NCBI GenBank assembly: GCA_016933575.1
Contig: JAFGAR010000064.1
Coordinates: 64,001 to 128,000, forward strand
Origin: Candidatus Thorarchaeota archaeon
GTDB taxonomy: Archaea; Asgardarchaeota; Thorarchaeia; Thorarchaeales; Thorarchaeaceae
Length of the DNA stretch: 64,000 bases
Reading direction: 5' to 3'
Shown here: piece by piece, positions 1 through 15,168 of the stretch
How the letters are laid out: each line of letters begins with the position of its first letter
How positions within the stretch are numbered: the stretch's first letter is position 1
Position numbers and translations under genes: made by a program
Notes under the pieces: generated by a model
The model's input: the letters and a program-made list of their open reading frames with translations, nothing else
The model's database searches: none
Told to the model about the DNA's origin: nothing

Positions 1-1800
1 CCAGATGCTATCGTTCAACCAATGACCCCTGAAGAGATTCGTTCACTCTATAAATTCGCAAATGCGGAAAAAATCCCTCTGGTTCCTAGAGGCGCAGGCA
101 CTTCTGGCTATGGTGGTGCAATACCACGAAAAGGAGGCGTTGTTGTTGATATGCGCCGTATGGATAATATTGTAACAGTTGATGAGAAGAATCTGACCGT
201 TGTTGTAGAACCCGGTATCTGCTGGTCCAATCTTCAACTAGAACTCAATCGACTTGGTCTCGACCTACGCTGCTATCCCTCATCTGCCCTCTCCGCCACA
301 GTTGGAGGCTGGGTAGCCCAAGGAGGCGATGGGATAGGTAGTTTGAAGTATGGGACTATCAACAAGAACTGTGTTGAATTTGAAGTAGTTCTTCCAAATG
401 AGAAGATAATTCGTACAAGTGATACAGATCTCTTTTGCGATACAGAGGGTATCCTTGGTATACTGACAAAGGTAACCCTAAAGATTAAGCCCTTGACCAG
501 GATCAAAGCCTTTGTCTCTAGCTTTCCAGAGAATTACCTAATGAATCTCGCAATCGAGAAGATTCTAGAAGACGGTCCACTCCCTTTCACAATAAAATTT
601 GAAGAATCTAAATACACAGACTTGAAGAAGTCTGTCTGGGAGGAGGACTGGAAATTCCCGTATCCTGTTCATCACTGTACTATTATGGTCGTCTACGAAG
701 GTGATGAAGAAGAGATCGAGACCGGTGCTGAAGTGGTTCGCCAAGTCACAGAGGCTCACAAAGGAGTCCTATATGATGACCATGTAGGCGAGCACGAGTG
801 GCATGAGCGATTCTACCCAATGAGAATCAAGAAGGCCGGACCTACCCTTGTAGTTGGACAAGCATTTGCACCACTCGAAAACTTAGGTGCTATCTTTGAT
901 GACTTCCAGTTTGAACAGGCATCTGCGAAGGCAGGTATTGATGGTTATGTCAATTCTAAGAACGCAGTCACAATGATGGGATATTTTCTCGAAGATGAAC
1001 GTCGTTCTTTCTATATGCTATCATGGTCTCAGAGCTTTGTCATTTTCAAAATTGCGCAACGTCACGGTGGACATCCACATTCAACTGGTATATGGTTCGC
1101 TAATTATGCACATATTTACTTCGGCAAACAGAGATTAGCTCGAATCCGAGCAGCGAAGCTGAAGTGGGATCAAAAAGAGATTTCGAATCCTGGTAAAATC
1201 TTTGCATATTGGCTTCCCTTCATGTTACGTGTGGGCAAGTACTTCATGTGGATTGGTTTCGATTTGCTACGGAATGGTTTTGGCAGGATTGCACCAATTC
1301 TTCTGAAATGGCTTCAGAATGTACCACCACTGAAGTGGTTATTACGGTGGGGTCGCGCTCACAGTCCTTGGCCGATTCAATACGGACTCGGGTGTTGTAT
1401 GGCTGATGGCGCAGCCGCAGTAGCATCACGATGGGATATAGAGAGATTCGGGATGCTCCCTCTCTTTGGACCCCGGCAGACGGATGTCCTTTGGATCTCA
1501 GGATCCCTTACAAAGAAGATGGCACCACGACTTCGTCGAATCTATGAACAGATGCCAGAGCCAAAGTATGTCATATCCTATGGCCAATGTGCAGCATCTG
1601 GTGGAATGTTTTTCGATGGATATTCTTTAATCGCTCCTGCTGATACGGTCGTGCCAGTGGACGTCTATATCCCCGGCTGTCCTCCCAAACCTGCTGACTT
1701 TGTGAGAGCTCACTTGATTTTACAGAACAAGATACGCGCTGGGACTACACACTGGCAAAAACGGTACGAGAATCAGGATTCGATGGGGTTGATTCAATAA
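1..1800 (+). CDS. nuoB: Fusion protein: FAD-binding oxidoreductase (GlcD/D-lactate dehydrogenase, VAO/PCMH family) + C-terminal NuoB-like [4Fe-4S] subunit; 5'-truncated by window edge
   Basis: Frame is open from base 1 (PDAIVQPMTPEE, typical FAD_binding_4 start). FAD motifs PRGAGTSGYGG, VEPG, YPSS..ATVGG and EGILGILT; FAD-oxidase C-terminal motif KWDQKEISNPGK. Then NuoB motifs WGRAHSPWP, GLGCC, PRQTD, IYEQMPEPKYVISYGQCAASGG and VDVYIPGCPP. Confidence 0.9.
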   Translation, partial: PDAIVQPMTPEEIRSLYKFANAEKIPLVPRGAGTSGYGGAIPRKGGVVVDMRRMDNIVTVDEKNLTVVVEPGICWSNLQLELNRLGLDLRCYPSSALSATVGGWVAQGGDGIGSLKYGTINKNCVEFEVVLPNEKIIRTSDTDLFCDTEGILGILTKVTLKIKPLTRIKAFVSSFPENYLMNLAIEKILEDGPLPFTIKFEESKYTDLKKSVWEEDWKFPYPVHHCTIMVVYEGDEEEIETGAEVVRQVTEAHKGVLYDDHVGEHEWHERFYPMRIKKAGPTLVVGQAFAPLENLGAIFDDFQFEQASAKAGIDGYVNSKNAVTMMGYFLEDERRSFYMLSWSQSFVIFKIAQRHGGHPHSTGIWFANYAHIYFGKQRLARIRAAKLKWDQKEISNPGKIFAYWLPFMLRVGKYFMWIGFDLLRNGFGRIAPILLKWLQNVPPLKWLLRWGRAHSPWPIQYGLGCCMADGAAAVASRWDIERFGMLPLFGPRQTDVLWISGSLTKKMAPRLRRIYEQMPEPKYVISYGQCAASGGMFFDGYSLIAPADTVVPVDVYIPGCPPKPADFVRAHLILQNKIRAGTTHWQKRYENQDSMGLIQ

Positions 1801-2318
1801 TGGCACTACGCGAAGATAGCGAACCCTATTGCTTAGCTTGGGTTGGTTTCCTCTTGATGGGTGCATATTATGCCAATTTCGGATACCAACTATGGACCAA
1901 TCCTGTTGCAGTATCTGCTTTCATCAACAACTCTCCCTCAATGCTAATCCTCCTTGGATTGCCTCCACTAATGGTGTTCCTGTTTACAGGGTACTTGCGA
2001 CCTTCTCGTGGAAAAGCAAAGATGAGCATGCTAGGTCCCTCTGTCATTGCAGGATTGTTCTTCGTGATTATATCATATCAGGTTGGATCAACGACTACTA
2101 TCCTCGGAGATCTGATAGTGTTTTCAGCATGGGGTATTGGAAGTGCTTTGTTGACAGCTGGAGGATTTTCAATTATGGCTTCTTTGGAGAAGAACACATC
2201 TCCTGGAATTATGGATATTAGTTCACTTCATTATGGTCCTGTAAAAGAAACGCCTGCACCTACTGAGGAGTCAGTACCTCAAGGCTCCGATGTAAAGCCA
2301 GCGGAATCGGCACAATAA
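1800..2318 (+). CDS. Hypothetical membrane protein (~4 TM), translationally coupled to the FAD-NuoB fusion
   Basis: TAATG stop/start overlap at 1798-1802; four hydrophobic segments and a Pro/Glu-rich tail. Confidence 0.75.
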   Translation: MALREDSEPYCLAWVGFLLMGAYYANFGYQLWTNPVAVSAFINNSPSMLILLGLPPLMVFLFTGYLRPSRGKAKMSMLGPSVIAGLFFVIISYQVGSTTTILGDLIVFSAWGIGSALLTAGGFSIMASLEKNTSPGIMDISSLHYGPVKETPAPTEESVPQGSDVKPAESAQ

Positions 2319-2321
2319 TTC

Positions 2322-2696
2322 CTAGTCTGTTTCTGGAAGCCATGCGAGAGCCGCAAAGGCCAGCAATAATCCACAGGCCATCCAGAAAAAGAGTAGAGCT
2401 CCCATTAGACCTTCTGGAAAGAGCGTTATGATAAGGAATCCATGGACACCACCTATGATTCCTGACAAAGTTGTCAGACTGACACGACCCGGTCTCGATT
2501 TGGTCCTTGCAAGAGCAAAAGTTGAGCATACGGTTACTATGCCACTCAGGAACAGAACTAGTTTAATCGCTATGTCTGAGATAGTAGCTGTTAGAATTAT
2601 CCAGAAGTATACTCCAAGGAGTCCCATCCCAATAAGAAGGACCAAGTAATAGAAAAATGTGCCACGGATGAATGACAACCAATTCGACCTCTTCAT
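2322..2696 (-). CDS. Hypothetical membrane protein (4 TM)
   Basis: 124-aa ORF with four hydrophobic helices, convergent with the previous gene. Confidence 0.7.
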   Translation of the reverse strand: MKRSNWLSFIRGTFFYYLVLLIGMGLLGVYFWIILTATISDIAIKLVLFLSGIVTVCSTFALARTKSRPGRVSLTTLSGIIGGVHGFLIITLFPEGLMGALLFFWMACGLLLAFAALAWLPETD

Positions 2697-2979
2697 TTGT
2701 TACTACGAGAAAGTCGAAGTGTTGTGCTGTATATTTAACTCCTTTGAGTGATGTTTGTTTGGGCGAATGGTTTTTAACATGCATTCAGAATGCGCCTGCT
2801 TAAGTTCGAAAGTACGGAACGTGACCATAAATGGTGATGTGCTGTGCAAGCCAGGATCAAAGATGCGGAGCTTAGAGAATGAAACATTTGTGCACTGAAA
2901 CCGCAAGAGATAGATATTGCAGACAAGAAGTCATTTTCCACAACTCACCTGGCGCTGAGTTTTCACTCTAGGAGGTCTA

Positions 2980-3432
2980 TTGATTACGATGAGGCTTTTC
3001 ATCGATTTCTTCCCGGTGCTTGTCTGGGCAGTATTAGTTATTGTCCTGATTCTCGGAATGTTAGTTGGATCTTGGGTATTGAGGCCTCATGTTCTCCAGA
3101 ATAGTGAAAAGACATCGAGCTACGAATGCGGTGAAGAACCAATAGGCCCCGCAAGAATTGCCTATCCCTACAACTATCTTGTCTATACTATCCTGTTTGT
3201 TGTTGTTGATGTGCTTGGCGCATTTCTGTGGTTACTTGCTGCATCCTCTTTTCGATTGAGCCCGACAATCGTTTGGCAAGTCCTTGTATTTGTGCTGATT
3301 CTTATGGGTGGTCTCGGCTTTGCCATGAAGATGCTTCCCCAGACTTTCCTCAGTGGAAAAGAAACTCTAGCACTATATCGCGAAGCTAAGGCTGCAAAGG
3401 AAAAACAAGAGCTTGAAGCAGGAGGTCACTGA
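2980..3432 (+). CDS. nuoA: Complex I-like subunit A (NuoA)
   Basis: KTSSYECGEEP loop, ILFVVVDV, 3 TM; GGAGG SD at 2971. Confidence 0.93.
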   Translation: MITMRLFIDFFPVLVWAVLVIVLILGMLVGSWVLRPHVLQNSEKTSSYECGEEPIGPARIAYPYNYLVYTILFVVVDVLGAFLWLLAASSFRLSPTIVWQVLVFVLILMGGLGFAMKMLPQTFLSGKETLALYREAKAAKEKQELEAGGH

Positions 3433-3436
3433 AGAG

Positions 3437-4081
3437 ATGCAACTCGATATATGGTTTGAAGAGGCTGAGTTCATTGTAATTGCTGCCATTGTCATTTTTC
3501 TTGCATACCTTGCACTGGAACATCGTGACATTGTCTACGCGGCATTCTTTTTTGGCTTCATGGCCTCTTTTGTTGCTGGTTTCTTTCTATTGCTTGAAGC
3601 ACCTTTCATTGCAGGTATGCAGATCGCTGTATACACTGGAGGGATTAGTGCATTGATAATCTTCGCAGTGCTTCTTCTACCCCGAGCCCAAGACTCTTCC
3701 TTGGAGGTCTTCGCTTCGCCTAGAAGAAGGAATGCTGGATTGGTACTATCAGCGATGGTTGGCTCATTGTCAGCAGCCCTAGCCCTCGTTTTTCCATGGT
3801 ACGAAACTTTCTCATCAGTGACTCCGCCACTTGAGAACAATCTTGAACTTCTCTCAAAATGGCTCTGGTCTGATCATGGTATCTATGTTCAGATGATTGC
3901 TCTCATCCTTCTCACAGCAATTGTTGGATCTATTGCTATTTTGAAGATGGAGAAAGCAGAACGTCTCACACCTATAGTAAGTGATTTTGGTGTTGAGTCA
4001 GTTCCTGAACCAATTGATGACGAAGCATCTGATATTGAAGATGAATCCCCGCAGAATGGGACTGAGGAGGTTGATACATAA
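3437..4081 (+). CDS. nuoJ: Complex I-like subunit J (NuoJ)
   Basis: LLEAPFIAGMQIAVYTGGISALIIFA motif; start moved to ATG 3437. Confidence 0.92.
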   Translation: MQLDIWFEEAEFIVIAAIVIFLAYLALEHRDIVYAAFFFGFMASFVAGFFLLLEAPFIAGMQIAVYTGGISALIIFAVLLLPRAQDSSLEVFASPRRRNAGLVLSAMVGSLSAALALVFPWYETFSSVTPPLENNLELLSKWLWSDHGIYVQMIALILLTAIVGSIAILKMEKAERLTPIVSDFGVESVPEPIDDEASDIEDESPQNGTEEVDT

Positions 4082-4401
4082 TGGTCCCCCTCTCCTGGTA
4101 TCTGGTGGTGGCGTTCATTCTCATAGGTCTCGGAATCTATGGAATGATGGTCAAGCGAAATCTCATACGTATTCTAATTGGAGCTGAAATCCTTGGTAAT
4201 GGAGTCAACATTGCCCTAGTTGCTGTTTCAATCTACAGCCCTGTCTTCACATTTACGGGACAGGGTTTACTCATGCTGGTGATCTCTGTGGCAGCAGCTC
4301 ACACAGCTCTTGCGATGGTTCTGATGCTTATTTACAATCAACGATACAAATCAGTTGACCTTGGTAGACCATTCAAACTGGAGGATGATAGCAATGCCTG
4401 A
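4081..4401 (+). CDS. nuoK: Complex I-like subunit K (NuoK)
   Basis: GIYGMMVKRNLIRILIGAEILGNG, GQG, 3 TM; the second conserved Glu (AAAE) is His here (AAAH). Confidence 0.93.
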   Translation: MVPLSWYLVVAFILIGLGIYGMMVKRNLIRILIGAEILGNGVNIALVAVSIYSPVFTFTGQGLLMLVISVAAAHTALAMVLMLIYNQRYKSVDLGRPFKLEDDSNA

Positions 4402-4903
4402 TGCATCGTCACTGGGTCGTGCAATCATCAATAAGCTGCCTGAGGTCGAGTCTAAACCACTTCAGGGAAATAAGATCGAGCTCCTGGTCCCTCATGAGAA
4501 AATTCGAGATGTGGTATCACTTATTGACGAATTGGTTCCCGATGCCTTACCCGAATCTGCATTTGGCATTGATCTTGAGGATGACAAATACGAAGTAGTC
4601 TACATATTTTGGTCTCATGAATCAACGATGCTCTGTCAGTTACGAGTTTCACTTGTAGGGGAGAAACCATCAATTCAGACTGTTAGCGACATATTTCCTG
4701 GGTTGGAATGGCATGAGCGTGAAACTAGTGAGATGTTCGGTATCACCTTTGAGAACCATCCTGACATGAGACCTCTCCTGCTGCCTGATGATTTGGTTGG
4801 AAAATATCCCATGAGAAAACGATTCAAGACCGATCGAAGTCGCCTTGAAGAAACTGGCCTTTCAACCCCTAGTCCTAGACCTGAACGTGGAGGTGGCGAA
4901 TGA
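4394..4903 (+). CDS. nuoC: Complex I-like subunit C (NuoC)
   Basis: WHERETSEMFGITFENHPDMRPLLLP...YPMRK signature. Confidence 0.93.
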   Translation: MPDASSLGRAIINKLPEVESKPLQGNKIELLVPHEKIRDVVSLIDELVPDALPESAFGIDLEDDKYEVVYIFWSHESTMLCQLRVSLVGEKPSIQTVSDIFPGLEWHERETSEMFGITFENHPDMRPLLLPDDLVGKYPMRKRFKTDRSRLEETGLSTPSPRPERGGGE

Positions 4904-6040
4904 ATGTGTCCAGATATCCTTGATGAAACCAGTGAGATCTGGTTTGGTCCTCAACATGTCAGTGCTCATGGGTGGGCTACAAAACTGAAACTTGTTGGAG
5001 ACTACATTGTCGAGTGTGACCCGAATGCTGGATATTTCCATCGTTCGGCTGAAAAATGTCTAGAGTTCCGTAATTTCAGGCAAGGTTCAATGGTATGTGA
5101 ACGTATCTGCATGATGGAAGCATTCGTTGCAGAATATCCCTATGTGGCTGCAGTCGAGAAGATTGTTGATCTTGAGGTCCCAGAACGCGCGAAAATCATG
5201 CGTACTATCATGATTGAGATGAATCGGATTCATTCTCTTCAGTTTTGGTGGGGTCAATTTGCAGGGGAGTTAGGTCTCTTTGCGATGCTGCTTTGGCCCT
5301 GGGTTGATAGAGAATATACACTTGATGCTTTTGAGGAACTGACTGGGTCTCGTCATACTGTATCCTATGTCACACCTGGCGGGGTTAAGTATGATTTCAC
5401 TCCCAAGTTCTTGGAAAAATTTGAAATTGCACTCTCTAGAGTGGAAGAACGAATCCCGATCTTCAAGGACATGTTTCTTGGTAGCCCTACGTTCAGGTTA
5501 CGTACCGAGGGAGTAGGTCAGTACACTGCAAAACAAGGTCTCAAGTGGGGCTTGAGTGGTCCTAATATCAAAGCTTGTGGTATTCCAATGGACCTCCGTA
5601 AGGATGACCCTGACTCGAATCTTGCATATGATATGATTGATTGGGAAGTACCCATTACAATAAACGAGAATCATCCTGGTGAATGCGATGCATTTGACAG
5701 ACTAGTTCAGCGATTCAAAGAAATTGAGACTTCAGTTGGTATTATCAGAAAGCTCTTACCTCTTGTCCCTGAAGGTCCAATCATTGACCCCAAGGCTCGA
5801 GCCAAAGTCAATCGTCTACCTGAAGGAGAGGGTTATGGTAGGATTGAGGGTACTCGTGGAATCACAACCGTTTGGTTGAAGACATTCGATAAGGCTCAGA
5901 CTCCATATAGAGCCAAAATACGTGGTCCTTGCTTCGCATCATATTATGCATTGAAGCATATTGTGCCAGGTGCTCGTTTTGCGGACTTTCCAGCGATATT
6001 TGGAAGCTTGGATCCTTATCCCGGGTGGTGGGACAGATAG
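4904..6040 (+). CDS. nuoD: Complex I-like subunit D (NuoD), without NiFe ligands
   Basis: FGPQHVSAHG, GYFHRSAEK, EMNRIHS, PGGV, PYRAKIRGP, C-terminal GSLDPYPGWWDR; no CxxC pairs. Confidence 0.93.
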   Translation: MCPDILDETSEIWFGPQHVSAHGWATKLKLVGDYIVECDPNAGYFHRSAEKCLEFRNFRQGSMVCERICMMEAFVAEYPYVAAVEKIVDLEVPERAKIMRTIMIEMNRIHSLQFWWGQFAGELGLFAMLLWPWVDREYTLDAFEELTGSRHTVSYVTPGGVKYDFTPKFLEKFEIALSRVEERIPIFKDMFLGSPTFRLRTEGVGQYTAKQGLKWGLSGPNIKACGIPMDLRKDDPDSNLAYDMIDWEVPITINENHPGECDAFDRLVQRFKEIETSVGIIRKLLPLVPEGPIIDPKARAKVNRLPEGEGYGRIEGTRGITTVWLKTFDKAQTPYRAKIRGPCFASYYALKHIVPGARFADFPAIFGSLDPYPGWWDR

Positions 6041-6053
6041 GAGGTGCGATGAG

Positions 6054-7199
6054 ATGCAGTTCGATTTCATAACTTGGCTTGACGGGCTTTATAATTGGTT
6101 CATCGGTCTCTTGATCTGGTTTTGGAATGTCATTGAATGGTTCTTCTTTTGGATCATTGATCTTATCAATGGAGTATGGGCCATAGTAATAATCCCTGAG
6201 AATTTCATGTTTCTATTCCGTTCTATTATATTCCCTGGACTCATCTTCATCGTGCTTGCACTCATTTTCAGTATCTGGTTCATCCGGAAGACATGGGCAC
6301 GAATTCAGGATAGACGTGGACCGACACATATGGGCAAGTATGGTGGTCTACAATTGTTTGCGGATGCAATCAAACTCATGGCTAAGGAAACAATAATTCC
6401 CGACAAGGCAAGACGTTGGGCTTATAGGATTCTACCTTCGTTACTCCTCTTAATTGTACTACTTCCCTTCGCATTCATACCCTGGGATCCAATATGGAAT
6501 ATTCTTGGAAATCCTGCCTTTCCCGACCTTTCTGTGAGCCTAGTGCTAGTCTTTGCATTTCTCACTGCAGTGCCTGTACTCTCACTACTAATCGGTTGGG
6601 TCTCAGGTTCCAAGTATTCTCTGATTGGAGGATTTCGAGCTGCAAATAACCAATTTGCCTCCGAGATACCCATGGTCATTTCTTCTATTGGTCCTGCAAT
6701 GCTTGCTGGTTCTCTGAGTCTCTTCGGAATTGTTCAAGCGCAGACCAGCATCTGGTACATTGTTCTTCTCCCAATCAACTTTACCACCTTCATGGTTGCT
6801 GCAATTGCCTCTGTAGGAACGTTTCCCTTTGATGCTCCCGTTGCAGACTCCGAGATTATCTTCGGGTGGCGAACAGAGCTATCGGGCATCTACTTCACGT
6901 TGGTCTATTTTGCTGAGTTTGCCGAACAAATGCTTTACTCAGCCTTAATGGTTGTACTCTTCTTTGGTGGTTTTAATGGACTTCCATTCTTACCAGGAAT
7001 TGTCAATTTCCTAATCAAGTGGCTTGTCGTATTATTCATCTTTGTAGTTGTGACATCTTCCTTCTATAGAATCAGACAGGACCAGATAGTGCACCTTTGT
7101 TGGAAATACTTACTGCCACTTTCAATACTTAATGTAGTTCTTGTCATGTTTGCAGTTGTCTACATACCAGGACTACTTCCGCTTGTGATAGGAGGATAA
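6054..7199 (+). CDS. nuoH: Complex I-like subunit H (NuoH) with Trp-rich N-terminal extension
   Basis: RKTWARIQDRRGP, GLQLFADAIKLMAKE, SKYSLIGGFRA, PFDAPVADSEI; GAGGTG SD before ATG 6054. Confidence 0.94.
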   Translation: MQFDFITWLDGLYNWFIGLLIWFWNVIEWFFFWIIDLINGVWAIVIIPENFMFLFRSIIFPGLIFIVLALIFSIWFIRKTWARIQDRRGPTHMGKYGGLQLFADAIKLMAKETIIPDKARRWAYRILPSLLLLIVLLPFAFIPWDPIWNILGNPAFPDLSVSLVLVFAFLTAVPVLSLLIGWVSGSKYSLIGGFRAANNQFASEIPMVISSIGPAMLAGSLSLFGIVQAQTSIWYIVLLPINFTTFMVAAIASVGTFPFDAPVADSEIIFGWRTELSGIYFTLVYFAEFAEQMLYSALMVVLFFGGFNGLPFLPGIVNFLIKWLVVLFIFVVVTSSFYRIRQDQIVHLCWKYLLPLSILNVVLVMFAVVYIPGLLPLVIGG

Positions 7200-7203
7200 T
7201 GCG

Positions 7204-7635
7204 ATGGGTTTCCTAAGTAATCTTGGTGAAATATTTCAAATCCTGAAACACGTCTTTCGTCAAACATTCAAAAGACCATTCACTTACTTCTATCCATTTG
7301 AAGACAGACCTTATCCTGAGAGAACCCGTGGCAGACACATCCACATTCGTGAGAACTGTACTGCATGTGCTCAGTGTGTGAGAGCATGTCCTGTTGCAGC
7401 AATTCGTATTGACAAGGAAGATAGAAAGTTCGAGAAGGATGCAGCTCTCTATTTTGATTATACGCGTTGCATTTTCTGCGGAGATTGCGTCAGTGCCTGT
7501 CGATTCGATGCACTTTTCCATACGAAAATCGTGGACCTCTCGGAGGGTGACCGTGATGACCTTATCTATGGCCCTGATAAGATAACAAAACTCGATAGAG
7601 ACCCTCTTGAGTGGCGTGGAAGGAGGTTCAGGTAG
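7204..7635 (+). CDS. nuoI: Complex I-like subunit I (NuoI), 2x[4Fe-4S]
   Basis: TYFYPFE..PERTRGRH; CTACAQCVRACP and RCIFCGDCVSAC. Confidence 0.94.
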   Translation: MGFLSNLGEIFQILKHVFRQTFKRPFTYFYPFEDRPYPERTRGRHIHIRENCTACAQCVRACPVAAIRIDKEDRKFEKDAALYFDYTRCIFCGDCVSACRFDALFHTKIVDLSEGDRDDLIYGPDKITKLDRDPLEWRGRRFR

Positions 7636-9134
7636 TGTTGTTTGGAATTCCCTTCATGGCACTATCACTCGCCGTGATGTTCATCGGAGGTCTCTTCATC
7701 TACCTGTTCAAGGCTAGCATTGGCGATGCAGCTGGTAGAATTGCAGTTGCTGTGTCTCTTGTAGGAACCATCCTGATGATTCCTCCATTCTACGAGCTCA
7801 TGATGTTTGGCTCATCCGTTGAAACAGCAGTATGGTCAAATCTACTTGAGCCATTTGGGCTGTACTTGGATCCAATTGCATTTCCAATCACTTTTGCTGT
7901 AGTAGTTCTTGGATTTCTATCAGTTGTCTATGCGGTGGGTTATACCAAACATACTGAGAACAAACCTACTTTTTTCGCAAATCAATTGTTCTTCATAATG
8001 GGAATGACATGGGTAACTCTTGCGACTAATATGATCGAGTTCTTTATAGCTTGGGAGCTTATGTTGGTGCCAAGCTACTTCCTGATTCTGTTCTGGGGTT
8101 TCCCTGAAACCAGAAAACGTACTGCTCTGAAATTCTGGTTGTACACACAATCTGGAGCTGTCTGTATCCTGATAGGCTTTGGACTTCTCTATGCTCAGGG
8201 TGGTTCATTTGTTCTGGCAAATATTGTTGCTAATGGTGACCTCATCTTCAAGGTCATTTTCATACTTCTAGCTGCTGGATTCCTTGTGAAAATGGCAGTT
8301 TTCCCAATCCACTGGTGGTTACCACCAGTTCATGCTGAGGCTCCAACTCCAATCTCAGTCCTATTGTCTGGTGCTATGATTGAAACCGGCGCCTATGCTC
8401 TGGTACGATTCGGTACCCTGACCCTTTACGATGCAGCGATATCGCTCTCAATCTGGGTAGCTGCACTCGGTGTTATCACGATGTTCTATGGCGGTTTCAT
8501 GGCACTAGCTCAGGTGGACATCAAGAGACTCCTTGCTTACTCCTCCGTTTCACAGATGGGGTACGTACTATTTGCTCTCGGTTCTGTTACAATCATAGGT
8601 GTTTCAGGTGGAATGTTCCATCTCATCAATCATGCTTTCTCAAAGGGTCTGCTGTTTATGACCGCTGGAGCTGTTATTCATCAGACCGGACTTCGTGATA
8701 TTAAGAAGATGGGAGGTCTCTCAAATAAGATGCCTATCACCGCCTTCGCAGCTGCCATCGGAATGATGAGCATTGCCGGTAGTCCTCCGCTCTCCGGATT
8801 CGCTTCGGAGTGGATGATGTTCCTCGGGGGATTTAATCGTGCTATAATTACCGATCCATTTACCCATATTGTCCTAGGAACTAACTTACCATTTCTGATT
8901 TTAGCAATTTTAGCTGTTTCCAGCTCTATCCTCAGCGCAGCATACATGCTTCGTTTCTTCTGGCGAGTCTTCCTTGGGCCTCATCCCGAAGAGCTCGAAG
9001 ATGTTAAGGAAAGTCCAAGATCCATGACCATTCCGATGATCATCCTTGGTGTCCTCATTGTAATCTTTGGAATATTCCCGAGCTTGGCACTAGATGTCAT
9101 TGTCCCGGCGTTTTCGAGTGCACTTGGTCCGTGA
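7635..9134 (+). CDS. nuoM: Additional NuoM-like antiporter subunit (second M-type / MrpD-related proton-translocating subunit)
   Basis: FFIAWELM, VKMAVFPIHWWLP..HAEAPTP, DIKRLLAYSSVSQMGY, NHAFSKGLLF, GFASE (NuoM-type TM12 Glu); GTG start at 7635 overlaps the nuoI stop. Confidence 0.85.
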   Translation: MLFGIPFMALSLAVMFIGGLFIYLFKASIGDAAGRIAVAVSLVGTILMIPPFYELMMFGSSVETAVWSNLLEPFGLYLDPIAFPITFAVVVLGFLSVVYAVGYTKHTENKPTFFANQLFFIMGMTWVTLATNMIEFFIAWELMLVPSYFLILFWGFPETRKRTALKFWLYTQSGAVCILIGFGLLYAQGGSFVLANIVANGDLIFKVIFILLAAGFLVKMAVFPIHWWLPPVHAEAPTPISVLLSGAMIETGAYALVRFGTLTLYDAAISLSIWVAALGVITMFYGGFMALAQVDIKRLLAYSSVSQMGYVLFALGSVTIIGVSGGMFHLINHAFSKGLLFMTAGAVIHQTGLRDIKKMGGLSNKMPITAFAAAIGMMSIAGSPPLSGFASEWMMFLGGFNRAIITDPFTHIVLGTNLPFLILAILAVSSSILSAAYMLRFFWRVFLGPHPEELEDVKESPRSMTIPMIILGVLIVIFGIFPSLALDVIVPAFSSALGP

Positions 9135-9144
9135 GGTGAATCAA

Positions 9145-11397
9145 ATGCTCTTTGGTCTACCAGAATATCTAATCATCGTCATTCCACTTGCAGGTTCCTT
9201 ATTTGTCCCAATAATTGGGAGGTATAGTACTCGTGCTAGAGACTGGACTCCTGCATTGTTGATGGGCATCTCTATGATTCTATGCTGGTCTCTCATACCT
9301 GACATTGGATCAGTCCCTAAGACCTGGAATTGGATCAACATTCCTGGACTTGTGATTCCCTTTAGTATGCTTCTTGACTCACTGTCCGTCATCATGGGTG
9401 TACTTGCTAGCACGCTCTGTTTTCTCATATACGTGTACAGCACCGAGTACATGGCACACGAGGGAGATAGAGACCGCTTCTTCTTCCTGATGCTTGCCTT
9501 CGGGGGTGGTATGCTTACCCTGGTCCTCTCAAACAACCTCCTGATTGCGTTTATTGGATGGGAGATCATGGGATTTTGTAGTTACGGACTCATTGGTTTC
9601 TGGAATGACAAGCGCAATCCTCCAGAGGTAGACCCAACTGGCTATGAGTCAAGTAATCCGTTGCTGCAGTTCAAGACCGAGGGCGAGTACAATACTCATT
9701 GCGGAACAAAGGCTTTCGTGGTAACAAGAATTGGTGACGCACTGATGCTGGGCGGCATCCTGCTTCTATTTACATTCACAGGGTCATTTCTCTTTCAAGA
9801 CACATCAATTGGAAGTCAGGCTGTTGAAGGTATTGCAGAACATGGCGGCTGGATAACTGCCCTAGCTGGTGTGGGTCTTCTGTTGCCCACGCTTTTGTTA
9901 ATCTTTGCTGGCGCGATTGGAAAGTCAGGTCAATTCCCTCTGCAGGTATGGCTCCCCGAAGCCATGAGTGGTCCGACTGCGGTTTCTGCTTTGATTCATG
10001 CTGCAACCATGGTCAAAGCAGGAGTCTATATCACTGCAAGATTTCTCTTGACAATCGTATCTGCTACAGAGACAAGCGGACACTCTTCATCTGCTATTGG
10101 GATGTTTCCGCTACAGATAGGCTTCCCTGATGCGTTCACCTTCTTTGCCATAGTTGCAATCGTTGGTGCTCTCACCGCATTCATTACTGGTACAATGGGA
10201 ATGGTCTCAAATGAACTGAAGCAGGTGTTGGCATTCTCAACTCTTAGCCAACTAGGCTATATGATGCTTGCAATAGGTACTGCTGGCATGTTGACGCATT
10301 ATGATGTTGCTTATCTGAGTAGCGTCATGCATGTCGTCAGTCATGGTGCATTCAAAGCGTTGCTGTTTCTCTCATCTGGTGGGATTATCCACGCGTTACA
10401 TACCAAGTATATGAGTAAGATGGGCGGGTTGAAGAAGTATATGCCCAAGACCTTTGCGCTTATGTGGATTGGAGTGCTAGCGTTGTCAGGAATTCCTCCA
10501 TTCTCAGGTTTCTGGTCAAAAGACTCAATCATAGAGCATGTATATGCACTTGGTGTTGAAACGCCTCTGGGAATTTTCCTGTTCATTCTTGCTATCGCAG
10601 CTGCGGCTTGTACAATCTTCTATAGCATTCGACTCATGGGAATGGTCTTCTATGGCCCATCAGAGTTTGACGAACATGACCAAGAGGAGGAATCAATCAG
10701 TAGCCATAATGACAAAGAGGAATCCGAAGAATCTCATGACGAACATCGCGGGGTACCCTCTGATCCAGGTCCAGCTATGATGATTCCGCTCTACATTCTA
10801 GCAGCATTCACTATCATTGCCTTCATAATCTATCCAATGATACAGAATATTGTCCTCCAGACTAATAGGGACTTGTTTATCATATTTCTTGAGGATATGG
10901 TAGCTGCGAAATTTGGTCCAGAAGGTTTAGTTCCCTTCACACTCACCATTGGAGCACTTGCTCTTGGTGGGATTCCAGCCTATTGGATTTACATTAAAAA
11001 CCAAGATACTCCAAACTCAATCATTCCAGAGAATGGAATTCTTAGGAAGTTGCACAACTTCTTGAAGCACCGCTGGTATATCAATGAGGGATACTATTGG
11101 TTTGTCAACAAGTTCCTCAGATTTGCTGATCTCTGGCGCAGGGAGATTGATGAGCCTATAATTGATGGCATTGACTTCAAGTCTGCAGCCACAGCCCAGG
11201 TACTTGCGACTAAGATTCGATGGTTTGATGATAATGTTGTGGATGGTTTTGCTGAGGCCGTGTCAACAAAGAGTGTTGAAGCTTCTGAGGTTGGACTTGA
11301 GTCTCAGACAGGAAAGATCAATGACTACGTCGGAGTGGTGATTTTCGGAGTAGGTCTCCTGATCATCATTGGACTTCTATCATTGGGGGTGCTCTAA
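9145..11397 (+). CDS. nuoL: Complex I-like subunit L (NuoL) with elongated lateral helix
   Basis: FIGWEIMGFCSYGLIGFW, KAFVVTRIGD, GKSGQFPLQVWLPEAMSGPTAVSALIHAATMVKAG, GFWSKD, terminal QTG..DY + TM; GAGGTGA SD before ATG 9145. Confidence 0.95.
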   Translation: MLFGLPEYLIIVIPLAGSLFVPIIGRYSTRARDWTPALLMGISMILCWSLIPDIGSVPKTWNWINIPGLVIPFSMLLDSLSVIMGVLASTLCFLIYVYSTEYMAHEGDRDRFFFLMLAFGGGMLTLVLSNNLLIAFIGWEIMGFCSYGLIGFWNDKRNPPEVDPTGYESSNPLLQFKTEGEYNTHCGTKAFVVTRIGDALMLGGILLLFTFTGSFLFQDTSIGSQAVEGIAEHGGWITALAGVGLLLPTLLLIFAGAIGKSGQFPLQVWLPEAMSGPTAVSALIHAATMVKAGVYITARFLLTIVSATETSGHSSSAIGMFPLQIGFPDAFTFFAIVAIVGALTAFITGTMGMVSNELKQVLAFSTLSQLGYMMLAIGTAGMLTHYDVAYLSSVMHVVSHGAFKALLFLSSGGIIHALHTKYMSKMGGLKKYMPKTFALMWIGVLALSGIPPFSGFWSKDSIIEHVYALGVETPLGIFLFILAIAAAACTIFYSIRLMGMVFYGPSEFDEHDQEEESISSHNDKEESEESHDEHRGVPSDPGPAMMIPLYILAAFTIIAFIIYPMIQNIVLQTNRDLFIIFLEDMVAAKFGPEGLVPFTLTIGALALGGIPAYWIYIKNQDTPNSIIPENGILRKLHNFLKHRWYINEGYYWFVNKFLRFADLWRREIDEPIIDGIDFKSAATAQVLATKIRWFDDNVVDGFAEAVSTKSVEASEVGLESQTGKINDYVGVVIFGVGLLIIIGLLSLGVL

Positions 11398-12978
11398 TTG
11401 CAGGTAGACTCTACAACTTTGATAACAAGTATTCCAATGAATATCCTCGTCCTCATACTTGTCATTCCTCTAGTTGGTGCGGTCCTTGCATACATCGCAG
11501 GCAGCAAGGGTGCACGTGCAATCACACTCCTGATTACGACACTCGAACTAGGCTTAGCCCTTCTACTCATTCTAGGTACTCCTTCAGTTGGTCCAGATCC
11601 TGGTGGAATGAGTTACACATGGATCTATACGATTGCGAGACTTGGAACCACTGTTGATTCTCCTGTCTTTCAAATCATTCTTGGTGTTGATGGAATCTCA
11701 GTAGTAATGATCCTCCTCTCCAATCTCGTCGTATGGATTGCAGCAATTGCATCAAATCATATCAAGAACGCAGAAGGTGTATACTACTCCTTATTCCTGC
11801 TCCTGCAGACAGGCCTCCTTGGAGTTTTTGTATCTCTTGATCTCATTGGATTCTTCATCTTTTGGGAACTTGTCCTTGTACCAATGTTTTTCATCATTGG
11901 CAGATGGGGCGAAGATGGAAGCAGACACGCGGCTATCAAGTTCTTCATCTATACTCATCTTGGTTCTGCAGTAATGCTCGTTGGATTCTTCTACATCTAT
12001 TTCATGTCTTATCAGTTCAATATTCTTGGATATCCAACTGCAGTCCCAACATTCAGCATGGTTGCGCTTCGGAACATCGGACTTGACCCAACCATTCAGA
12101 TAGGTTTTGCTCTTGCCATATTCATGGGTGCAGGCGTGAAACTTCCAGTATTTCCATTACATAACTGGTTGCCATGGGCTCACGTAAAGGCACCAACTCC
12201 TGGTTCAGTTATCCTCGCTGGAATTCTTCTGAAGATGGGTGGGTATGCATTCATCAGACTCGGACTTTGGATGGTCCCAGAAGCAATGGCTAGACTTGCC
12301 ATTCCCTTTGCCTTTGTGGCTGTCTTCACATGTATCTACGCTGCATTTACCGCACTTGCTCAGACTGATATGAAGAGCCTTGTAGCTTATACGTCTATCA
12401 ACCACATGTCATGGGTCCTACTTGGCGTTGCTGCGTATGCGGCTGCCTACAATTCTCCAGATGCAGCTATTCGAGCTGCTGCGAACTTGGCTATCCAAGG
12501 TTCTATATTCATGATGTTCTCACACGGCACCATAATCTCTGTCATGTTCATTGTAGCTGGGCAGCTCAAATATAGTGTAGGTACTCGTGAGATTCCCGAA
12601 GTTAAGGGATTGATGACACAGGCTCCTAAACTCTCAGCGATTATGATCATTGCTACCTTGGCAGCTTTCGGTCTTCCTGGATTTAGTGGATTCATAGCAG
12701 AGGCACTGGTCATCTTTGGAGCCATTGTCATTCATCCGTGGACCGCATTCATCGCGTTTGGCATTTTCTTGACAGTAGGCTACATGCTCTGGATGTTAAA
12801 TCGAATTGTCTTTAGTGATATTGACCCCGAAAAAAGCGTGAATGAAGCCGCACGAAGCGATCTCATTGCTCCAATCCTCATGTTAATTCCTGTGATTCTG
12901 CTTGGGATTTGGCCTGATCTGATATTGAATCTCGTTCAACCAGTTGTTGAACTGATGCTGAGCGGAGGTTTACCATAA
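11398..12978 (+). CDS. nuoM: Complex I-like subunit M (NuoM)
   Basis: FFIFWELVLVPMFFIIGRWG, KLPVFPLHNWLPWAHVKAPTPGSVILAGILLKMGGY, PGFSGFIAE. Confidence 0.95.
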   Translation: MQVDSTTLITSIPMNILVLILVIPLVGAVLAYIAGSKGARAITLLITTLELGLALLLILGTPSVGPDPGGMSYTWIYTIARLGTTVDSPVFQIILGVDGISVVMILLSNLVVWIAAIASNHIKNAEGVYYSLFLLLQTGLLGVFVSLDLIGFFIFWELVLVPMFFIIGRWGEDGSRHAAIKFFIYTHLGSAVMLVGFFYIYFMSYQFNILGYPTAVPTFSMVALRNIGLDPTIQIGFALAIFMGAGVKLPVFPLHNWLPWAHVKAPTPGSVILAGILLKMGGYAFIRLGLWMVPEAMARLAIPFAFVAVFTCIYAAFTALAQTDMKSLVAYTSINHMSWVLLGVAAYAAAYNSPDAAIRAAANLAIQGSIFMMFSHGTIISVMFIVAGQLKYSVGTREIPEVKGLMTQAPKLSAIMIIATLAAFGLPGFSGFIAEALVIFGAIVIHPWTAFIAFGIFLTVGYMLWMLNRIVFSDIDPEKSVNEAARSDLIAPILMLIPVILLGIWPDLILNLVQPVVELMLSGGLP

Positions 12979-14483
12979 TGCTGCAATTAGACATCTTGCT
13001 TGACAGCCTAAGGGCTTTATTAGCCCCTCTAAGAGACCTATTGCTCGCAATTGTACCAGCTGAATGGATCATGTCCCTTCCTGCTATTACTCTGGTAGTC
13101 TTTGGATTACTTGCCCTAATGGTCGGACTTCGATATAATCCATTAGTCATAAGCTTCATCGGTGTCATTCTTGCAACATTTGAGATGCTTCTGTTCGATC
13201 CCAGTGCTATGAGTGGCTATTCGTTTGGAACATTATTCATTCGCGATGCTTTCACCGATTTCTTCATCTACATTGTTCTTATCGTTGCTTTCCTAGTCTT
13301 GCTCTCTTCCACTCTTTGGGGGGGTGACAAAGGGACCTACAATTTCCTACTTCTCCTCTCTTTTGCAGGAGCTCTCTGGGTAATTATGGCGACAGATCTT
13401 GTAGCTCTATTTCTTGCCTGGGAACTGATGTCCACGCCAACTTATGTTCTCGTTGCTCTTAGTCCAAGACGGGAATCTGTAGATGGCGCTACAAAATACT
13501 TCGTTATGGGCTTGCTTGCAACAAACCTCATGCTACTTGGCATTGCTCTGACTATTGGTGTTACTGGAACCACTGACCTTCACACCATTGGAGTGTTCAT
13601 TAATAGCCTATGGGCTTCACCAGCTGGTAGTGAACCAGCGGTCTACACAATGCTTCTTGCAATGGTCTTGTTTATTGTTTCATTCGGATTCAAGGTCGGT
13701 ATATTTCCTGGATGGCAATGGGTTCCTGATGCATATGCAAGTGCTGATGGTAGTGTCACTGCTTATCTTGCAGGAGGTTCTAAAAAGACAGGAGTGAGTG
13801 CCCTTCTACGAATCTTGATGGTTGCATTCTTTGTTGCTAGGACTGAGTGGACTCTATTAATAGCTGGTGTAGCAATCCTAACAATGATCATTGGTAATCT
13901 ATTAGCTCTCGCTCAGAAGGATATCATGAGGATGTTAGCGTATTCCAGCATTGCGATGATGGGTTATCTCTTCATTGGTATCGCCGCAGCTAACGAATTG
14001 GGCATGGCTGCAGCTAGTTTTCATGCATTCACTCATGCAATAATGAAGACAGCTGCCTTCATCCTTGTGTGGATGCTATCTTTAAGACTCACGAAGAGAA
14101 TAACCTATGATGACCTCGCGGGATTGAACAAGCGAGCACCCATTGCAGCAGCTATGTTTGCCATACTGATGCTCTCTCTTGCAGGACTTCCTGTAGGTGT
14201 AGGGTTCTGGTCAAAATTAGTACTCTTCCAGAGTGCAATCCTCGCAGACATGTGGTGGTTGGCTTTGATAGGTCTCTTGAACTCAGTCTTCTCCTTGGGC
14301 TATTATTTACGAATACTGAAATATACTTACATGATTGAACCTGTTGATGACTCGAAATTAAATCTACCAAGAGTACCCCTATTTGCAGTAGGCATTTGTG
14401 TAGCTATTGTTCTCTTGCTGTTGGTATTTCCAAACCTTGTCCTTGATTATGCCTTTCAAGCGGCATTGACCTTCTTCCCATAG
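12978..14483 (+). CDS. nuoN: Complex I-like subunit N (NuoN)
   Basis: LAWELMS, ATKYFVMG, FKVGIFPGWQWVPDAY, GNLLALAQKDIMRMLAYSSI, GFWSK. Confidence 0.95.
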   Translation: MLQLDILLDSLRALLAPLRDLLLAIVPAEWIMSLPAITLVVFGLLALMVGLRYNPLVISFIGVILATFEMLLFDPSAMSGYSFGTLFIRDAFTDFFIYIVLIVAFLVLLSSTLWGGDKGTYNFLLLLSFAGALWVIMATDLVALFLAWELMSTPTYVLVALSPRRESVDGATKYFVMGLLATNLMLLGIALTIGVTGTTDLHTIGVFINSLWASPAGSEPAVYTMLLAMVLFIVSFGFKVGIFPGWQWVPDAYASADGSVTAYLAGGSKKTGVSALLRILMVAFFVARTEWTLLIAGVAILTMIIGNLLALAQKDIMRMLAYSSIAMMGYLFIGIAAANELGMAAASFHAFTHAIMKTAAFILVWMLSLRLTKRITYDDLAGLNKRAPIAAAMFAILMLSLAGLPVGVGFWSKLVLFQSAILADMWWLALIGLLNSVFSLGYYLRILKYTYMIEPVDDSKLNLPRVPLFAVGICVAIVLLLLVFPNLVLDYAFQAALTFFP

Positions 14484-14535: not shown

Positions 14536-15087
14536 TCAAATCTCTGAATCTCTCTCCCTTTCCTGCAATATAGCCAGTTTGGTACATTCTTCGAATAGCT
14601 TATTGATATTGTGTCCTGTGCGTGCTGATGTTTCAAAATAACGGACACTCAACCATTTCCTGAGCATTTCACCAGCCTCTCGAGGAACAAGTCTGTCAGC
14701 TCTATCAACTTTATTTGCAACTAATGCAATAACAGCTTCTGGGCAGACAGATCGGAAACTGTTGTACCATTCATTCACATTGAGATAGGTATCCGGTCTT
14801 GTAACATCATAAACAATGAATGCCATTGATGATCCAGTCATGTATCTTTGCCGAAGGTCTTTATACGTGGGTTGTCCTGCTAGATCCCACAAGACTACTT
14901 GCGTCTGAAAATGTTCTCCATCAATTTCAATATTTACAATCTTAACTGCTATACTAGTACCAATTGTAGCCTTATACTGCTCACCAAATCTGTTCTCCGT
15001 GTATCGCATTATACAGCTGGTCTTGCCAACTGCTCCATCTCCTAATGCCACCATCTTGAGAACATATTGCGGACCTTCATCAGTCAA
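14536..15087 (-). CDS. Rab/Ras-like small GTPase (eukaryotic signature protein)
   Basis: G1 GDGAVGKT, G2 YKATIG, G3 WDLAGQ, G4 NKVD, G5 ETSAR; no C-terminal Cys prenylation motif. Confidence 0.93.
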   Translation of the reverse strand: MTDEGPQYVLKMVALGDGAVGKTSCIMRYTENRFGEQYKATIGTSIAVKIVNIEIDGEHFQTQVVLWDLAGQPTYKDLRQRYMTGSSMAFIVYDVTRPDTYLNVNEWYNSFRSVCPEAVIALVANKVDRADRLVPREAGEMLRKWLSVRYFETSARTGHNINKLFEECTKLAILQERERDSEI

Positions 15088-15168
15088 GATAGTTACATCC
15101 TATTGCACTGCTCCGTTTAATAATCTGAGATTTAACCATTCTGGCAAAAATCGATACTTTGATTTCAT

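Follow-up and report, generated by a model that had tools for sequence, protein, structure and literature searches.

A thorarchaeal complex I homologue with its NuoB subunit fused to a flavoprotein, apparently an undescribed variant of the complex I family

Homologues of respiratory complex I swap their electron-input modules, among them NuoEFG, FpoF and ferredoxin adaptors, and no case is on record of the subunit that carries cluster N2 being joined covalently to a foreign substrate-level oxidoreductase. In Methanosarcina, the homologue Fpo receives electrons from reduced coenzyme F420 (F420H2) through FpoF and reduces methanophenazine, and the carrier is re-oxidised by HdrDE, whose cytochrome b subunit HdrE anchors HdrD. 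Here we describe a locus of a Candidatus Thorarchaeota archaeon that encodes a complex I-like ion pump and, a little upstream, a NuoB subunit fused to a flavoprotein. The locus opens a stretch of 64,000 nucleotides, hereafter the window (G000:C38:64001-128000), in a 3.47-Mb metagenome-assembled genome that is 85.5% complete with 6.9% contamination. The fusion is real and conserved, and it makes the system an apparently undescribed variant of the complex I family.

In two reports (10.1101/2022.08.18.504445; PMC6421429), a head-less Fpo-like pump is proposed to form a complex with HdrD in Methanomassiliicoccales, and with HdrD and GlcD in Ca. Methanomethylicia. Those systems and the one described here are alike in being complex I homologues of eleven subunits without NuoEFG or FpoF, in their presumed electron donor, ferredoxin, and in the presumed docking of a GlcD-type flavoprotein and an HdrD-like CCG protein. 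The proposed complexes are, however, hypotheses from gene content, whereas the covalent NuoB fusion is direct genetic evidence of association; the present locus also differs in coming from a non-methanogen, in having four antiporter subunits and in its altered NuoD pocket. Among other Asgard archaea, head-less Nuo complexes have been reported together with many Dld-HdrD gene pairs in Sif- and Jordarchaeia (PMC9723677), and novel complex-I-like hydrogenases are on record for Heimdallarchaeia and Freyarchaeia. The Dld-HdrD pairs, like the bacterial proteins of about 1000 amino acids (aa) that unite FAD, Fe-S and CCG domains (YdiJ/Dld-II), share with our locus the module of a VAO-family flavoprotein and an HdrD-like protein, of which there are many paralogues per Asgard genome. 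None of them is joined to a complex I subunit, and for the subfamily found here, which is without the His/His/Glu site discussed below, the label 'D-lactate dehydrogenase' is unproven.

Gene content was read with Pfam and NCBIfam profiles over window positions 1-14483 and the upstream DNA of the same contig. Matches to FAD_binding_4 (E = 6e-38), FAD-oxidase_C and Oxidored_q6/NuoB (E = 1e-24) all lie in one frame at 1-1800, and the upstream DNA shows the gene to start 140 nt before the window (G000:C38:63860), its product being 646 aa long. Beyond the fusion and up to 14483 come Pfam matches to NuoA, J, K, C, D, H and I, along with four Proton_antipo_M proteins, and there is no nuoB inside the nuoA-nuoN interval. 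All eleven core subunits common to complex I, NDH-1 and Fpo (NuoA, B, C, D, H, I, J, K, L, M and N) are present, NuoB solely as the fused domain; this Pfam scan, along with a genome-wide check of Oxidored_q6 matches described below, bears out the original prediction of an operon without nuoB whose only NuoB is joined to an upstream flavoprotein. The predicted spacing of some 1.2 kb was also correct, nuoA starting 1.18 kb after the fusion's stop codon, but the interval is not empty: it is filled by two conserved genes for small membrane proteins with four transmembrane (TM) helices, orf172 and orf124. The features of the locus, in window coordinates, are as follows.

1..1275, + strand: flavoprotein part of the fusion, residues 48-472 (residues 1-47 are encoded upstream at C38:63860-64000); VAO/GlcD fold ending in an amphipathic tail; Pfam FAD_binding_4 and FAD-oxidase_C
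1276..1800, + strand: NuoB part of the fusion, residues ~473-646; N-terminal helix PPLKWLLRWGR; NCBIfam NuoB above cut-off
1384-1410 (GCCM), 1582-1605 (GQCAASGG) and 1672-1692 (PGCPP), + strand: N2 ligand motifs in the fused NuoB
1800..2318, + strand: orf172, small membrane protein with ~4 TM helices by hydropathy; its start overlaps the fusion stop (TAATG)
2322..2696, - strand: orf124, small membrane protein with four TM helices by hydropathy; position conserved in related loci
2980..3432, + strand: nuoA; Pfam Oxidored_q4
3413..4081, + strand: nuoJ; Pfam Oxidored_q3
4081..4401, + strand: nuoK; Pfam Oxidored_q2
4355..4903, + strand: nuoC; Pfam Complex1_30kDa
4904..6040, + strand: nuoD, divergent; GPQHVSAHG loop at 4946-4972, ERICMME at 5099-5119, C-terminus DPYPGWWDR
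5961..7199, + strand: nuoH, likely start ATG at 6054; Pfam NADHdh, NCBIfam NuoH
7204..7635, + strand: nuoI, two [4Fe-4S] motifs; Pfam Fer4 families
7611..9134, + strand: M2, the extra antiporter-like subunit; Pfam Proton_antipo_M, NCBIfam NDH_I_M above cut-off
9094..11397, + strand: nuoL, 767 aa; lateral-helix repeat at 11074-11313
11398..12978, + strand: nuoM
12978..14483, + strand: nuoN

The same gene order is found throughout in G320, a relative whose genome is a single contig of 3.16 Mb. The product of orf172 has no Pfam or NCBIfam match, and the gene is kept at the same position in 27 of 29 related loci.

The fusion was surveyed in 400 genomes of the phylum, among them the 86 of the window's own family (genera g1-g16). 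As a single open frame of full length, free of stops and 74-87% identical, it occurs in about 50 species genomes, all from g1-g12 of that family, and independent assemblies contribute at least 45 protein clusters with the same frame. An assembly artefact or chimeric open reading frame can therefore be rejected. The window-type NuoD is present in 60 of the 86 family genomes, again all from g1-g12. All 15 genomes of g13-g16 are without it, and several of them reach 92-99% completeness. At least 41 species genomes carry the two genes on one contig and in the same orientation, and in 36 of these the spacing is 3.0-3.7 kb, as in the window, with the fusion upstream of nuoD. Fusion and nuo operon are thus co-distributed, both being confined to g1-g12, and the fusion is not peculiar to one assembly. 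In one relative (G334:C5:93253-95186) it reads as two overlapping adjacent frames, residues 1-435 and 435-645, which reflects either an error of frame or a genuine split.

The genome encodes no NuoB of complex I type other than the fused one, which is the sole candidate for the N2 subunit. Its best match in the PDB is Nqo6 of T. thermophilus (149 bits, against 105 for MbsJ and 96 for MbhJ), and the N2 ligands, a tandem CC and two further cysteines, are retained. Oxidored_q6 has five matches elsewhere in the genome, of which one, on contig C57, is NuoB-sized and 43% identical to the fused domain. This free protein was considered as the real partner of the operon and rejected: it sits in an A-B-C-D-H-I module of its own, with four NiFe cysteines, whose B and D proteins are 43% and 30% identical to those of the window. 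The small subunit of the module has a CxxC motif, and the large subunit retains both cysteine pairs (RICGICSATH ... DPCFSC); because all four NiFe cysteines are there, the module is a true group-4 [NiFe]-hydrogenase, and the one possible rival nuoB belongs to it. The hydrogenase module (C57:55328-65911) is not followed by any antiporter-like gene; it stands directly downstream of two genes for HgdAB-like 2-hydroxyacyl-CoA dehydratase and their activator, and near this genome's only gene for a MenA-like prenyltransferase.

As to input modules, it had been predicted that the window has neither NuoEFG nor FpoF nor a NiFe site. No NuoF (PF01512) was found in the genome, at its stated completeness, and FrhB/FpoF-like matches are on other contigs only, none of them beside the operon. 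NuoD in turn fails the test for a group 4 [NiFe]-hydrogenase, only one of the four NiFe cysteines being left (ERICMME; the protein ends in DPYPGWWDR), so that on all three counts the expectation was confirmed.

No part of the fusion is better conserved than the NuoB domain, which shows 82-94% identity against 73-93% for the whole protein. There is no long linker at the junction: the whole flavoprotein, its amphipathic tail included, is joined to a NuoB that has given up about 20 N-terminal residues. Among 5.8 billion proteins, the longer ones that contain NuoB are, besides this fusion, only intra-complex NuoBC, NuoBCD, NuoAB and NuoB-ferredoxin; a published survey of archaeal protein fusions has NuoB-C(-D) only; and no description of the fusion was found in the literature on NuoB, FAD, GlcD, Dld and HdrD of Thorarchaeota and other Asgard archaea. 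The prediction that the combination had gone undescribed holds in this respect, but not for the four antiporters, which are already known as '2M' complex I (PMC12342949, citing Chadwick 2018).

The flavin adenine dinucleotide (FAD) domain is modelled with a predicted local distance difference test score (pLDDT) of ~90, and Foldseek relates it to mouse LDHD (TM-score 0.83), LctD and AGPS, all matches being to flavoproteins alone or to Ldh-EtfAB. The closest sequence match of the domain is LctD of the lactate/Etf confurcating enzyme. By Pfam and Foldseek, the fold of the predicted GlcD/D-LDH-type oxidoreductase stands; the 2-hydroxyacid substrate that went with it does not fare so well. When aligned to LctD, the domain has DGYVNSKNAV in place of H..gdgnlH and GHPHSTG in place of EHGiG. 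It is thus without the His/His/Glu metal site by which LDHD/LctD-type enzymes bind 2-hydroxyacids, which makes lactate, glycolate or 2-hydroxyglutarate doubtful as substrate. Since the triad is missing across the whole flavoprotein subfamily, including Firmicutes fusions of ~1000 aa, 'GlcD/D-LDH' is an assignment of fold and not of substrate. The score on the NCBIfam GlcD equivalog is far under its cut-off (131 against 568). The FAD-binding motifs and those of the subfamily (EW.ERFYPMR.K..GP and DER) are nevertheless invariant over 72 sequences.

In the ~1000-aa Firmicutes proteins the same domain is fused to an HdrD-like domain; the gene for the Thermincola FAD-HdrD fusion stands alone, so that its context offers no hint of a substrate. 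A third arrangement is seen in a member of Hydrothermarchaeota (GCA_046760505.1, L056:4758-11657), where the same FAD subfamily is fused to a membrane subunit of NrfD type in a protein of 867 aa. Its operon also encodes two multihaem cytochromes c and an NrfC-like protein with four clusters, and it is adjoined by an HdrD-like gene and one for a UbiE-type methyltransferase. This is apparently another undescribed way to attach the flavoprotein module to a membrane complex.

In the window's genome an HdrD-like protein is encoded next door to the fusion. The divergent gene upstream, not known when the prediction was made, specifies a protein of 407 aa with two 4Fe-4S motifs (Pfam Fer4_8) and two complete CCG domains; its cysteine columns, among them the eight cluster cysteines, do not vary over 71 homologues. 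All NCBIfam equivalogs score it below their cut-offs, TfrB coming closest with 169 against 385. The orthologue is adjacent to the fusion in 18 of 29 related loci, and in the others tested it is 2-5 kb away on the same contig. A model of the complex between fusion residues 12-628 and the HdrD-like protein scored 0.67, against 0.00 for the best of three controls; 58 of 80 solved complexes attain the mark applied to this score, as do 2 of 110 mismatched pairs, figures that are only approximate here because custom alignments were used. At least 98% of contacts agree between runs, and the pLDDT of the partner is at least 75. All confident contacts run between the FAD domain and residues 13-88 of the HdrD-like protein, a ferredoxin-like domain containing the eight cluster cysteines. 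Among the flavoprotein elements involved are its FAD loops (79-81 and 142-147) and, from the subfamily motifs, ERFYPMR (318-330), whereas the model reports none with the NuoB domain. We know of no like complex among solved structures. The model supports, but does not prove, binding of the HdrD-like protein to the flavoprotein, and such binding would fit the independent evidence from gene fusion. Because the two-cluster domain is placed on the FAD-binding loops, the FAD may be expected to talk to the HdrD-like clusters rather than directly to N2.

HdrD-like proteins are numerous in these archaea, with 8-11 paralogues in each Thorarchaeota genome. In G320, four flavoprotein/HdrD-like paralogue pairs stand in tandem (G320:C1:1498001-1518000) between the fusion locus and genes for a MenA-like protein and a polyprenyl synthase.

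These results bear on the role first envisaged for the flavoprotein, that of a direct input module in the place of NuoEFG or FpoF. With or without the HdrD-like clusters, it would lie close enough to N2 or the clusters of NuoI for electron tunnelling, and an organic substrate oxidised at the FAD would pass electrons to N2 and on to a membrane carrier, or backwards by way of NuoI to ferredoxin, the ion gradient being spent in the process. The covalent fusion to the N2 subunit itself speaks for such a role, as does the fact that no other input module is encoded, NuoF not having been found and FpoF not being adjacent, and the confurcating enzyme of LctD, to which the FAD domain is closest, meets the same thermodynamic difficulty by other means. 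An extra pump, too, would suit reverse electron transport of the kind proposed for bacterial 2M complexes (PMC12342949). We consider direct input unlikely all the same. In the model the face of the FAD loops is covered by the ferredoxin domain of the HdrD-like protein, for which no contacts to NuoB were reported; the junction is at the N-terminal helix of NuoB, presumably at the membrane surface, and not atop NuoI, where NuoG or FpoF dock; the metal site expected for a 2-hydroxyacid is missing; and an acceptor would still be required in a pocket without the quinone tyrosine.

The pump itself resembles a class known from bacteria. The '2M' complex I of Nitrospira and other bacteria, reportedly described by Chadwick et al. 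in 2018, is said to combine a second NuoM-like subunit with a longer lateral helix in NuoL and to keep NuoC and NuoD as separate proteins. All three are common to the bacterial complexes and to the one encoded here, which is a head-less, '2M'-type complex I-like ion pump; it differs in being archaeal (Asgard), in the position of the extra subunit before nuoL and the replacement of its TM8 lysine by glutamate, in an operon without nuoB, and in the fusion of NuoB to a flavoenzyme. The extra subunit M2 (507 aa), encoded between nuoI and nuoL, scores 299 bits on NCBIfam NDH_I_M against a cut-off of 264. By alignment, all four antiporter-like subunits retain the TM5 glutamate and TM7 lysine, and M2 combines the TM8 glutamate (GAA at 8382-8384) with a TM12 glutamate of NuoM type. 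The lateral helix of NuoL has two D..(I/V)(I/V)DG units 26 residues apart and extends over ~80 aa from WY to QTG; the canonical length of this helix, and the 26-aa lengthening in bacteria, are figures that we take as given. With four Proton_antipo_M proteins and the 26-residue repeat in NuoL, the prediction of four antiporter subunits was right. Complex I with four antiporter-like subunits is a known kind, and for the bacterial members reverse electron transport to ferredoxin has been proposed (PMC12342949).

The neighbourhood of the fusion includes genes that could serve a lipid carrier. One MenA-like aromatic prenyltransferase is present per genome in g1-g15, scoring 107-137 bits on TIGR00751 (cut-off 102) and up to 172 on NF004751 but only 28 on the DGGGP-synthase model. 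Its gene is on the fusion contig in 34 species genomes, and within 5 kb in 24 of them, where the order is: nuo operon and fusion, leftward; HdrD-like gene, rightward; MenA-like gene, leftward; polyprenyl synthase, rightward; and a GGR-family reductase, leftward. In g14 the MenA-like, HdrD-like and flavoprotein genes form one co-directional row in that order. The window's own genome has the polyprenyl synthase and the GGR-family gene at the fusion locus. GlpC, SdhE and HdrD (with HdrE) are examples of CCG proteins that act where membrane carriers are met. Taken together, these observations point to, without proving, a link between the FAD/HdrD-like module and a prenylated membrane carrier.

The reading that we favour, though we hold it at somewhat less than even confidence, is that pump and module exchange electrons through a lipophilic prenylated carrier and not through a direct wire. 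A module of 'Dld/GlcD-HdrD' type, leading from FAD through Fe-S to CCG clusters, would be tethered covalently at the membrane-near foot of the pump; the amphipathic tail of the flavoprotein passes directly into the N-terminal helix of NuoB. Ferredoxin would feed NuoI and, through it, N2; N2 would reduce the carrier in the altered NuoB/D/H pocket, driving ion pumping; and the tethered HdrD-like/FAD module would turn the carrier over at the mouth of the pocket against a soluble organic or disulfide couple. The reverse may also occur, with an organic donor reducing the carrier, and the carrier reducing ferredoxin at the expense of the ion gradient. A complex I homologue and an HdrD enzyme are linked by a prenylated carrier in Methanosarcina as well, but as two separate enzymes; here there is no HdrE, the HdrD-like partner is predicted to sit on the flavoprotein fused to NuoB, and the carrier is putative.

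Several observations weigh against an exchange through such a carrier. The NuoB domain folds poorly when the fusion is modelled alone (pLDDT 30-58), and that model gives no cofactor geometry. The placing of the NuoB N-terminal helix near the mouth of the quinone tunnel, at the membrane surface, is our assumption from the T. thermophilus structure. The genes MqnA/D, MqnE, MenD and MenB for the menaquinone head group all remain below cut-off, here and in relatives up to 99% complete, and canonical menaquinone was rejected as the acceptor for this reason. The MenA-like gene of the window's genome is off-locus, beside the hydrogenase module on C57, and scores 74 bits, below the cut-off of 102. It is found, moreover, in g13-g15, which lack the pump; strict co-variation of MenA-like gene and pump was therefore rejected, the conserved feature being its linkage to the HdrD-like/FAD pair. 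Finally, NuoD reaches 314 bits on the NCBIfam NuoD model, under the cut-off of 360, has its best PDB match in MbsL (6u8y_L, 205 bits, with complex I at ~180), and in all Thorarchaeota orthologues reads ER(I/L/M)CM (ERICM here) in place of the canonical DRLDY, tyrosine being replaced by methionine and aspartate by cysteine.

In T. thermophilus Nqo4, His38 and Tyr87 are the ligands of the quinone head group (PMC7684303). The NuoD of the window keeps the histidine loop, GPQHVSAHG, and that of the sister clade described below has ERLSM at the altered motif. The cysteine of ERxCM (window 5099-5119) is specific to the fusion-bearing Thorarchaeota clade; its place is taken by serine in the sister clade with free NuoB and by aspartate in canonical NuoD. 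To judge from these residues, the acceptor pocket is conserved but non-canonical. It is neither a hydrogenase site nor the arrangement of MBS, the membrane-bound reductase of sulfane sulfur, because the proximal-cluster motif is of complex I type.

The MBS of Pyrococcus furiosus is among the closest known systems (PMC7684303), both NuoD homologues having lost the quinone tyrosine while keeping one or two of the old NiFe cysteines, and both complexes being head-less and dependent on ferredoxin, presumably so in our case. The pocket might accordingly reduce polysulfide or another non-quinone substance at or near N2, with the FAD/HdrD-like module merely co-localised or handling the product. That the match of NuoD to MbsL, its best among solved structures, extends over the full length, that the first NiFe cysteine is kept in both, and that no quinone head-group pathway was found would all agree with chemistry of this kind. 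We regard it as very unlikely nonetheless, since the differences are considerable: MBS has a proximal cluster with three cysteines, an Mrp-type arm and two pumps, against the complex-I-type tandem CC of a NuoB closer to Nqo6 than to MbsJ, an arm of NuoA/J/K/L/M/N type and four pumps; NuoD here has both loop histidines that MbsL lacks; and catalysis by MBS needs a shortened loop that leaves one Fe without a cysteine ligand (PMC7684303).

The module might, alternatively, be an outlet for electrons. The complex would then be an energy-converting oxidoreductase between ferredoxin and a disulfide or other soluble acceptor, electrons passing from ferredoxin through NuoI and N2 directly to the CCG clusters of the HdrD-like protein or to the FAD, at which the terminal acceptor would be reduced. 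Its parts list equals that of the proposed 'Fpo-HdrD-GlcD complex' (10.1101/2022.08.18.504445; PMC6421429); the HdrD-like protein, with its complete and invariant CCG domains and cluster cysteines, looks equipped for such a reaction; the drop in potential from ferredoxin to a disulfide would be big enough for an extra pump; and Thorarchaeota genomes have many Dld/HdrD pairs, as do those of Sif- and Jordarchaeia (PMC9723677). We think this quite improbable, however. In all solved relatives, namely complex I, the membrane-bound hydrogenase and MBS, coupling occurs in the NuoB/D/H pocket (PMC7684303), and it is not obvious how electrons taking a route around it would drive pumping; a metabolism of coenzyme M and coenzyme B is not in evidence here; and the model, again, reports no contact between the HdrD-like protein and the NuoB domain.

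Some relatives throw light on the origin of the fusion. Outside Thorarchaeota the nearest relatives of the window's NuoD, 48-52% identical, come from Asgard family f32 (G397) and two metagenome contigs. The operon of this sister clade runs (A divergent)-J-K-C-D-H-I-M2-L-M-N; it shares the four antiporter genes, with their TM5 glutamate and TM7 lysine, and the NuoL repeat, and has no nuoB. G397 encodes a free NuoB of 186 aa away from the operon, 67% identical to the fused domain, and it follows that the 'orphan' state of nuoB predates the fusion. G397 also has, on contig C31 (L053:8990-10093), a second and solitary copy of the window-type NuoD, 49% identical and without other nuo genes around it. 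Yet another Asgard family has a distant flavoprotein/HdrD-like pair next to a partial cluster of nuoN-K-J and nuoA-B (G003:C175:14001-23589); the NuoB there is 58% identical to the fused domain, and the genome has no window-type NuoD, the best match being 32% identical.

Genus g14 has an unfused flavoprotein, 58% identical and directly downstream of the HdrD-like gene in the same direction, and no nuo operon. The C-terminus of this protein (…MKWMLHGFPPLKWLRNR) aligns with the N-terminal helix of the sister clade's free NuoB, and the g14 locus is syntenic with the window on both flanks, minus ~17 kb. For these reasons the unfused form is probably not the ancestral state, although the argument rests on a short motif; with moderate confidence, g14 may be taken to hold a fusion secondarily truncated after loss of the pump.

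Since g14 retains the flavoprotein and HdrD-like genes without a pump, the FAD/HdrD-like module can work alone, and one may ask whether the flavoprotein is merely an accessory or assembly domain, the fusion anchoring a peripheral dehydrogenase to a membrane complex with which it exchanges no electrons. The missing canonical substrate-binding triad would suit that role. Yet the invariance of FAD-binding and subfamily motifs in 72 sequences, the retention of the fusion as one frame in ~50 species and the independent fusion of the same subfamily to two other electron-transfer partners, HdrD-like and NrfD, are hard to reconcile with a mere scaffold, to which we give very little credence.

Two further features of the window may be recorded. 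Directly after nuoN, at 14536-17139 on the minus strand, are genes for a small GTPase of the Ras family (183 aa) and a PAS/GAF histidine kinase (656 aa), part of the ~17-kb segment absent in g14. A very long open reading frame of 1892 aa occupies 25296-30974, also on the minus strand.

On the boldest reading, the fusion would mark a hard-wired, self-contained mini respiratory chain, in which a four-pump complex I homologue and a flavin/HdrD-type oxidoreductase, held by one polypeptide anchor and served either by a prenylated carrier of their own or by a direct Fe-S wire, couple ion translocation to electron exchange between ferredoxin and an organic or disulfide couple. We offer this wider picture as a possibility, and a rather doubtful one. 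If true, and if run backwards, it would yield low-potential ferredoxin from a higher-potential organic donor by use of the ion gradient, and the group of lineages closest to eukaryotes would have, at the membrane, an alternative to flavin-based electron bifurcation. With its four-antiporter arm, altered NuoD pocket and linked MenA-like and polyprenyl genes, the locus extends the '2M' class to archaea and hints at a lipid carrier. The fusion is, furthermore, a Rosetta stone for the Fpo-HdrD(-GlcD) supercomplexes. For some ten years these have been assumed, and never shown, in methanogens that reduce methyl compounds and for the numerous Dld/HdrD pairs of Asgard archaea. The means by which anaerobic Asgard archaea conserve energy, and the question whether membrane carriers serve them, bear, finally, on metabolic models of eukaryogenesis.

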